Below are positions 9,001 through 12,000 of a DNA stretch of 64,000 bases, one piece after another. Origin of the DNA: Escherichia coli (GTDB lineage: Bacteria > Pseudomonadota > Gammaproteobacteria > Enterobacterales > Enterobacteriaceae); NCBI RefSeq assembly GCF_050920415.1, contig NZ_CP169309.1; one strand, written 5' to 3'. Position 1 is the first letter of the stretch, and the number at the start of each line of letters is the position of its first letter. Made by a program: the position numbers.

Positions 9001-12000
9001 ACGATGCAGACCTCGATCTCGCCGCCGATATCGCCATGATGGCGAACTTCTTCAGCTCCGGCCAAGTGTGTACCAACGGCACCCGCGTGTTCGTTCCGGC
9101 GAAATGCAAAGTCGCATTTGAGCAAAAGATTCTCACGCGCGTTGAACGCATTCGCGCGGGCGACGTTTTCGATCCGCAAACTAACTTCGGCCCGCTGGTC
9201 AGCTTCCCGCATCGCGATAACGTGCTGCGCTATATCGCTAAAGGCAAAGAGGAAGGCGCGCGCGTACTGTGCGGCGGCGATGTGCTGAAGGGTGATGGCT
9301 TCGATAACGGCGCATGGGTTGCACCGACCGTGTTCACCGATTGCCGCGACGAAATGACTATCGTGCGCGAAGAGATCTTCGGCCCGGTGATGTCGCTCCT
9401 CACGTATGAGTCTGAAGACGAAGTGATTCGCCGCGCCAATGATACCGACTACGGTCTGGCGGCGGGTATCGTCACGGCGGATCTGAACCGCGCGCATCGC
9501 GTCATTCATCAGCTGGAAGCGGGTATTTGCTGGGTCAACACCTGGGGAGAATCCCCGGCGGAGATGCCCGTTGGCGGCTACAAACACTCCGGCATTGGTC
9601 GCGAGAACGGCGTGATGACGCTCCAGAGTTACACCCAGGTGAAGTCCATCCAGGTTGAGATGGCTAAATTCCAGTCCATATTCTAACCAGGAGGTTTATT
9701 TGCAATTTGACTACATCATTATTGGCGCCGGCTCTGCCGGCAACGTCCTCGCGACACGTCTGACTGAAGATCCGAACACTACCGTGCTGCTGCTTGAAGC
9801 GGGCGGCCCGGACTATCGCTTTGACTTCCGTACCCAAATGCCCGCTGCGCTGGCGTTCCCGCTACAGGGTAAACGCTATAACTGGGCCTATGAGACCGAG
9901 CCGGAACCGTTTATGAACAACCGTCGCATGGAGTGCGGACGCGGTAAGGGGCTTGGTGGATCATCACTGATCAACGGCATGTGTTACATCCGTGGTAACG
10001 CGCTGGATCTCGATAACTGGGCGAAAGAACCCGGTCTGGAGAACTGGAGCTACCTCGACTGCCTGCCCTACTACCGCAAGGCCGAGACGCGCGATGTGGG
10101 CGAGAACGACTACCACGGCGCTGATGGCCCGGTAAGCGTGACCACCTCAAAACCGGGTGTCAATCCGCTGTTTGAAGCGATGATTGAGGCGGGCGTGCAG
10201 GCGGGCTATCCGCGCACAGAAGACCTTAACGGTTATCAGCAGGAAGGTTTCGGCCCGATGGACCGCACCGTCACGCCGCAGGGCCGTCGCGCCAGCACCG
10301 CGCGGGGTTATCTCGATCAGGCCAAATCGCGCCCGAACCTGACTATTCGAACTCACGCCATGACCGATCACATTATCTTTGACGGCAAACGCGCGGTAGG
10401 CGTCGAGTGGCTGGAAGGCGACAGCACCATCCCAACCCGCGCAACGGCCAACAAAGAAGTGCTGTTATGTGCAGGCGCGATTGCCTCACCACAAATCCTG
10501 CAACGCTCCGGCGTCGGCAACGCTGAACTGCTGGCCGAATTTGATATTCCGCTGGTGCATGATTTGCCCGGCGTGGGCGAAAATCTTCAGGATCATCTGG
10601 AGATGTACCTGCAATACGAGTGCAAAGAACCGGTTTCCCTCTACCCTGCCCTGCAGTGGTGGAATCAGCCGAAAATCGGTGCGGAGTGGCTGTTTGGCGG
10701 CACCGGCGTGGGTGCCAGCAACCACTTTGAAGCAGGCGGATTTATTCGCAGCCGTGAGGAATTTGCGTGGCCGAATATTCAGTACCATTTCCTGCCAGTG
10801 GCGATTAACTATAACGGCTCGAACGCAGTGAAAGAGCACGGCTTCCAGTGCCATGTCGGATCGATGCGCTCGCCAAGCCGTGGGCATGTGCGGATTAAAT
10901 CCCGCGACCCGCACCAGCATCCGGCGATTTTGTTTAACTACATGTCGCACGAACAGGACTGGCAGGAGTTCCGCGACGCGATTCGCATCACCCGCGAGAT
11001 CATGCATCAACCGGCGCTGGATCAATACCGTGGCCGCGAAATCAGCCCCGGCGCGGAATGCCAGACAGATGAGCAGCTCGATGAGTTCGTGCGTAATCAC
11101 GCCGAAACCGCCTTCCACCCATGCGGTACGTGCAAAATGGGGTACGACGAGATGTCCGTTGTGGATGGCGAAGGCCGCGTGCACGGGCTGGAAGGATTAC
11201 GCGTAGTCGATGCGTCAATTATGCCGCAGATTATCACCGGCAATCTGAACGCCACGACCATTATGATTGGCGAGAAAATGGCGGATATGATTCGCGGACG
11301 AGAAGCGTTGCCGAAGAGCACGGCAAGATATTTTGTGGCAAATGGGATGCCGGTGAGAGCGAAAAAAATGAGTCGTGATTTGAACTAACTCAGGAACCTA
11401 TCAGATTGAGAGTTACCGTTCTACGATAAGGACCGAATCCTTATATAAAAAACATAGGTAACTCTCATGCTTCATATCCAGTATTCATGATGCTGTTTTT
11501 TTGCTGATGTTTTTACCAGAATATTCCTGATACAGACTATTAATTCAAGCTTATCTGCGACAGATTTCATTTTCTGGATATATTATGAGTGACAAATCAA
11601 ACAGGATATCGATCTGATTGAAATTTTATTTTATCTGAAGAAAAAGATTCGTGTTATTCTGTTTATTATAGCTGTTTGTATGACAATGGTGCTATTATTT
11701 CTGTACATCAATAAAGACAATATAAAGCTGAGTTACAGCCTAAAAATAAACCACACAACATCAGGCATACTTGTAAGCTGTGATAGCAATAATAACTTTG
11801 CCTGTCAGACCACAATGACTGAAGATGTTATTCAGCGAATTACGAGTTTTTTAGACCAGTACTAATGCTAAAAATTGCCTTGTCAAAAAAATGGTAGATG
11901 AATACCAACAAAACTCTGGGCAGTAATAAACAGCATTCTGATAGAGAGTGCCTGTATATAGCTGAAGTGACAATGACCGGGAAGGGAACCCGTTTTCAGG

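Follow-up and report, generated by a model that had tools for sequence, protein, structure and literature searches.

Where translation of betA begins is the question raised by the bet locus of this Escherichia coli genome. The reading frame of the gene was followed through the window, i.e. the whole stretch of 64,000 nucleotides that was analysed. The nearest in-frame stop upstream is the TGA at 9640-9642, and from this stop to the FAD-binding motif the frame contains neither an ATG nor a GTG. The initial annotation had stated that no in-frame ATG precedes the FAD motif, and the scan from the stop at 9640 agrees. The canonical in-frame candidates for the start are two TTG codons, one at 9700, between betB and the FAD motif, and the other at 9655, within betB. 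The first of them was proposed from the start, and TTG 9700 is almost certainly the true and sole site at which translation of betA starts, a reading supported by its conservation and by initiation in vitro.

The bet operon and the betB-betA junction

The genomic context matches the bet operon, with betI, betB and betA in succession and betT divergent. The genes are placed in the window as follows:

5451-7484, minus strand: betT, choline transporter, divergent (bet operon context)
7613-8200, plus strand: betI, repressor (bet operon context)
8214-9686, plus strand: betB, betaine-aldehyde dehydrogenase, the upstream gene of betIBA (NCBIfam NF009725, 913 bits; RefSeq)
9700-11388, plus strand: betA, choline dehydrogenase, 562 aa plus stop in the source strain (NCBIfam, Pfam, PDB)

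BetA scores 1031 bits against the NCBIfam profile TIGR01810 (cutoff 732.1), with profile positions 1-532 corresponding to residues 4-537, and 1002 bits against NF002550 (cutoff 605). The Pfam domains GMC_oxred_N (PF00732) and GMC_oxred_C (PF05199) span residues 3-300 (E 2e-63) and 393-524 (E 1e-41), respectively. Position 1 of the GMC_oxred_N profile falls on residue 3 and that of FAD_binding_2 on residue 4. The solved choline dehydrogenase 9lq0 of the PDB aligns to residues 2-557.

The 3' end of betA differs between the source strain and K-12. The former has seven A residues at 11362-11368 and the latter six; the extra A shifts the stop and yields a BetA of 562 aa, six C-terminal residues longer than the 556 aa of K-12 (...RAKK). 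The longer form is the one annotated by RefSeq in the identical strain MFDS1022581. On the 3' side of betA, RefSeq annotates in this same strain a truncated pseudogene (hypothetical protein, C-terminus missing) at 11596-11850, in the place that an intact ykgH occupies in K-12.

The betI-betB junction (8198-8216) has an architecture like that of betB-betA: a TAA is followed by 13 nt that include CCGAGGAG, and then by the ATG of betB at 8214. A GTG at 8211 stands directly before this ATG (GTGATG). INRI-seq (PMC9825163) lists for K-12 betB a further in-frame ATG start at +9.

The elements that bear on the start of betA lie close together:

9684-9686, plus strand: stop codon TAA of betB (sequence; end of the RefSeq betB CDS)
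9689-9695, plus strand: Shine-Dalgarno (SD) sequence AGGAGG(T), with AGGAGG at 9689-9694 (sequence; conserved in TTG-type loci)
9700-9702, plus strand: betA initiation codon TTG, UUG in the mRNA (sequence, RefSeq, invariance in E. coli, TTG/ATG alternation among species, INRI-seq)
9724-9741, plus strand: GxGxxG FAD/ADP-binding motif GAGSAG, residues 9-14 of BetA (translation)

The junction reads TCC ATA TTC TAA CC AGGAGG TTTAT TTG CAA TTT GAC TAC ATC ATT ATT GGC. The AGGAGG that the initial annotation had located at 9689-9694, ahead of the TTG, is thus read directly in the sequence. The spacer TTTAT (9695-9699) separates it from the TTG by 5 nt, within the 4-9 nt that characterize a canonical UUG start led by an SD. 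The span originally assigned to the start, 9697-9702, holds the right codon together with three nucleotides that do not belong to it (TAT TTG); the initiation codon proper is limited to 9700-9702. The stop of betB and the start of betA sit in different reading frames, and the gap between TAA and TTG counts 13 nt (9687-9699), which corrects the 14 nt reported earlier.

The heptamer AGGAGGT is a perfect 7-nt complement of the 3' end of the 16S rRNA, ACCUCCU. Compared with canonical UUG starts, the SD of betA is above average in strength, given this 7-nt complement, and the site is otherwise in no way unusual. Counted on both strands, the 64-kb window contains AGGAGG 16 times, against 17.6 in shuffles, which corresponds to roughly 1.25e-4 per position. 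Because of this low frequency the AGGAGG ahead of the TTG is not expected by chance: its occurrence at near-optimal spacing before one given codon has a chance of the order of 1e-3 and is unlikely to be fortuitous.

The mechanism of initiation would be the ordinary one. The 30S subunit would bind the near-perfect SD AGGAGG(T) 5 nt upstream of the TTG, and the initiator fMet-tRNA would read UUG as fMet. BetA would then begin with fMet-Gln-Phe-Asp-Tyr (MQFDY), and the first strand of the Rossmann fold follows after only 3-4 residues. UUG is the start of about 3% of the E. coli genes (Hecht et al. preprint). Initiation from the three canonical starts AUG, GUG and UUG reaches 10-100% of that from AUG, and the protein still begins with Met (Hecht et al. 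preprint).

Conservation of the TTG codon

RefSeq places the start of the betA CDS at the base that corresponds to 9700 of the window in strain MFDS1022581 (locus L001, position 2701), to which the window is 100% identical in both regions tested. The same base is used in a K-12 derivative (locus L002, position 2701), and the junction sequence is identical. In K-12, betA (b0311) is the same gene in the same operon position, with an identical junction TAACCAGGAGGTTTATTTGCAATTTGAC and with the start annotated at the same TTG; its product is the UniProt entry P17444. The BetA proteins of the source strain and K-12 are 98% identical, an identity that points to BetA as the enzyme that would oxidize choline to betaine aldehyde. 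Over the bet region the DNA is about 93% identical, and the 45 nt that surround the start, like the start itself, show no difference. The annotation of NC_000913.3 also uses this TTG: in the INRI-seq oligo table a 30-nt 5' UTR ending CCAGGAGGTTTAT is followed by TTGCAATTTGAC.

The degree of identity varies along the window. The region 7200-11900, which holds the bet genes, has an identity of only 92.6% with K-12 over 4.7 kb and reaches 97.0% with Pseudocitrobacter vendiensis (L003) over 3.66 kb. On the other hand, the ecpBCD part of the window (30000-34000) is 95-99% identical to nearly all complete E. coli genomes. These identities suggest that the bet locus was exchanged between genera.

Within the species the codon does not vary. 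With a 401-nt probe the bet locus was located in 5,179 of the 5,426 complete E. coli genomes, in a total of 5,183 records. A second probe of 45 nt was centred on the start, with TTG at its positions 23-25, such that any 28-mer megablast seed must span the TTG. This probe matched the same 5,183 of 5,183 records, with 100% identity in 5,149, and its ATG and GTG versions matched none among the complete E. coli genomes. Since every record answers to the TTG probe and none to the other two, the TTG of betA is fixed in E. coli.

Beyond E. coli, one genome per species was taken, and the codon aligned to 9700 was extracted from each of the resulting 80 loci. The only N-terminal search pattern used (MQFDYIII) encodes ATG, so any bias of this sample favours ATG and not TTG. 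The aligned codon is TTG in 33 of the 80 loci, from Pseudocitrobacter, Enterobacter, Lelliottia, Leclercia, Huaxiibacter, Klebsiella, Raoultella and Citrobacter. A further 21 loci have ATG: 19 more Enterobacterales (Pluralibacter, Trabulsiella, Cedecea, Pantoea, Kosakonia, Tatumella, Rosenbergiella and relatives) and two Pseudomonas. The rest of the loci, from Pseudomonas and Moraxella, start with an ATG placed 1-2 codons further upstream, e.g. MSQEFDY. Neither CTN nor TTA is found at this codon among the 80 species loci. As judged from the aligned codons, this alternation between TTG and ATG only is the pattern of start-codon substitution and not that of a leucine codon. The case of Trabulsiella is the most direct: its ATG-CAA-TTT-GAC is the N-terminus of the E. 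coli BetA with ATG in the place of TTG.

The surroundings of the codon are also conserved. In all 33 TTG-type loci the SD is kept as AGGAGG or GGGAGG with a spacer of 5-6 nt. The distance from the betB stop to the start is 13 nt in all 26 TTG loci of Escherichia, Enterobacter and Citrobacter type and 14 nt in the seven of Klebsiella/Raoultella type. The frame of Klebsiella and Raoultella is closed by a stop 45 nt upstream, and since the interval holds no other start codon, the TTG is the only option there. Among the ATG-type lineages the frame meets a stop 3-27 nt before the start, and in five of these lineages an in-frame TGA immediately precedes the ATG.

Initiation profiling and the rival start sites

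The initial annotation had named ribosome profiling with initiation inhibitors as a means of checking the start. Such profiling is published for K-12, in vitro, as INRI-seq (Hör et al. 2022, PMC9825163), which combines cell-free translation of a synthetic K-12 transcriptome with retapamulin. Each gene is represented by a template that joins 30 nt of upstream sequence to its first 51 codons (153 nt coding), and a start is called when more than 5 CPM fall within 12-18 nt of it in at least 2 replicates (PMC9825163). For betA (b0311; start 327247, minus strand) the peaks amount to 104.8, 89.4, 84.6, 69.7 and 91.3 CPM (PMC9825163, Table S2). The annotated TTG is accordingly called as a start in 5 of 5 replicates (PMC9825163), with a peak window, 12-18 nt from the start, that does not separate codons within about 3 nt of each other, such as the out-of-frame ATT at 9698. 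betA is absent from the table of alternative starts (Table S3), which includes TTG, CTG, ATC and ATT (PMC9825163). The template comes from K-12, identical to the source strain over the 45 nt around the start, and does not include the upstream TTG 9655.

These data also give an indication of the strength of the site. The mean peak of betA is 88 CPM for a transcript level of 55.6 CPM, against 43 and 97.3 CPM for the ATG-initiated betB (PMC9825163). Since its peak per transcript abundance exceeds that of betB, the betA TTG is not weak in vitro. The template carries no betB, and therefore the site recruits initiating ribosomes alone under these conditions. In vivo, the Ribo-RET value for betA is 0 (PMC9825163), and BetA has no entry in the examined portion of the E. 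coli N-terminomics tables of TRAINSPOTTER. Both results fit the silence of betIBA when osmotic stress and choline are lacking. A search of the literature for an explicit statement on the betA start codon or the N-terminal sequence of BetA turned up no paper that takes up the start codon. The TTG start is already known and ordinary, being contained in the reference annotation and in the published initiation profiling.

Two other locations of the start have to be weighed against TTG 9700. A start at the in-frame TTG 9655 would add 15 residues to the N-terminus of BetA. This codon is the first canonical start after the stop at 9640, for which reason a mechanical ORF finder reports it, and its counterpart is present in many Enterobacter-type loci. 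The overlap with the coding sequence of betB accounts for this apparent conservation, and Citrobacter amalonaticus and C. sedlakii have CTC or ATC at the corresponding place. The codon lacks a correctly spaced SD, with a CCAGG that abuts it, which bears out the early claim that TTG 9700 is the only start preceded by an SD. In Klebsiella and Raoultella an in-frame stop separates the counterpart of 9655 from the conserved TTG, and in the ATG-type lineages the upstream stops bar such an N-terminal extension. The additional residues would also lie outside the family profiles, as position 4 of NF002550 already aligns to residue 1 of the TTG-initiated protein. Initiation at 9655 is thus very improbable and was rejected on the comparative evidence and on the missing SD.

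The opposite displacement, by which initiation would occur downstream at one of the near-cognate codons ATC 9715, ATT 9718 or ATT 9721 and the TTG would be untranslated or code for leucine, is the least probable of all. ATC and ATT do initiate in E. coli, at about 1-2% of the AUG level (Hecht et al. preprint). The three codons, however, encode the isoleucines of strand beta-1 (YIIIG, from codon 5) of the FAD-binding fold, and a start among them would truncate a fold in which GMC_oxred_N begins at residue 3 and 9lq0 can be aligned from residue 2 onwards. The distance of these codons from the SD is 20-26 nt, the INRI-seq search for alternative ATC and ATT starts returned none for betA (PMC9825163), and the exclusive alternation of TTG and ATG at 9700 is unlike that of a position which is not a start. 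The downstream codons were rejected on the domain boundaries and on the lack of an alternative site in INRI-seq. The start at TTG 9700 is upheld by RefSeq, by its invariance in E. coli, by the cross-species alternation of TTG and ATG and by INRI-seq.

Possible coupling to betB and significance of the start

With the start at TTG 9700, the relation between the translation of betB and that of betA has to be considered. The stop of betB lies 13 nt upstream, and the SD and the TTG of betA would both lie beneath a ribosome that ends the translation of betB there. Part of the initiation in vivo would probably be re-initiation, or would follow local unfolding by the ribosomes translating betB, in addition to fresh binding. 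Translational coupling of the two genes is thus plausible and fits the geometry of the 13-nt gap, and it is not needed in vitro. Its demonstration was not found in the literature search. The pair shares with coupled operon pairs of short gap both the 13-nt distance and an SD placed between stop and start. Unlike the demonstrated coupled pairs, the betA site initiates alone in vitro, and a selected sequestering structure is not supported.

A stricter form of coupling accepts the TTG as the start and makes it obligatorily dependent on betB. A hairpin between 9643-9656 and the SD would hide the site until a betB ribosome opens it, tying the amount of BetA to that of BetB. This is rather unlikely, even if clearly less so than either of the displaced starts. 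The betA binding site does fall within the footprint of a ribosome terminating at the betB stop, 13 nt away. In the minimum-energy fold of 9640-9760, GGAGG is predicted to pair with 9646-9651 in betB, with an unpaired probability of 0.0-0.18; the hairpin partner TCCATCCAGG is invariant in all TTG-type loci, and the predicted mean unpaired probability of the SD is 0.18 in TTG lineages versus 0.32 in ATG lineages. The stability of the fold is, however, like that of shuffled sequences (z = -0.55; 58 of 200 shuffles fold as well), and when the last 20 codons of betB are recoded synonymously, the SD is hidden as much or more in 32% of the cases. Both arms of the hairpin are invariant across the TTG-type loci, which leaves no variation for covariation. 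The betA site captures initiating ribosomes in vitro where betB is not translated, from a template that also lacks the upstream hairpin arm. A hairpin that sequesters the SD is thus predicted but not taken as proof of enforced coupling, being indistinguishable from shuffles and from synonymous recodings, and obligatory coupling enforced by structure would be a minority possibility.

An observation on the same segment concerns the betB codons TCC ATC CAG G (9643-9656). Their synonymous sites are invariant in all TTG-type enterobacterial loci, whereas the neighbouring codons vary. This invariance could reflect codon preference or shared ancestry and not RNA structure.

The invariant TTG, the strong SD and the fixed 13-nt gap could also be taken together as a conserved tuning device of the Escherichia-Enterobacter-Klebsiella-Citrobacter clade. 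BetA initiation would then be tied to the translation of betB or to the status of IF3, and betaine aldehyde would be curbed. This proposal is doubtful, more so than that of obligatory coupling. If it were true, choline dehydrogenase would be kept from outrunning betaine-aldehyde dehydrogenase and the build-up of toxic betaine aldehyde would be prevented.

For the annotation, the analysis confirms the reference TTG at 9700 and shows the mechanical ORF call at 9655 to be in error. Beyond the annotation the betA start is of minor importance and does not depart from known biology. In the cloning or overexpression of betA, e.g. for glycine-betaine engineering, the native start to be considered is TTG, and its change to ATG may alter the output of BetA. 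This start of betA, which is not ATG, is fixed in E. coli and likewise across a broad enterobacterial clade.
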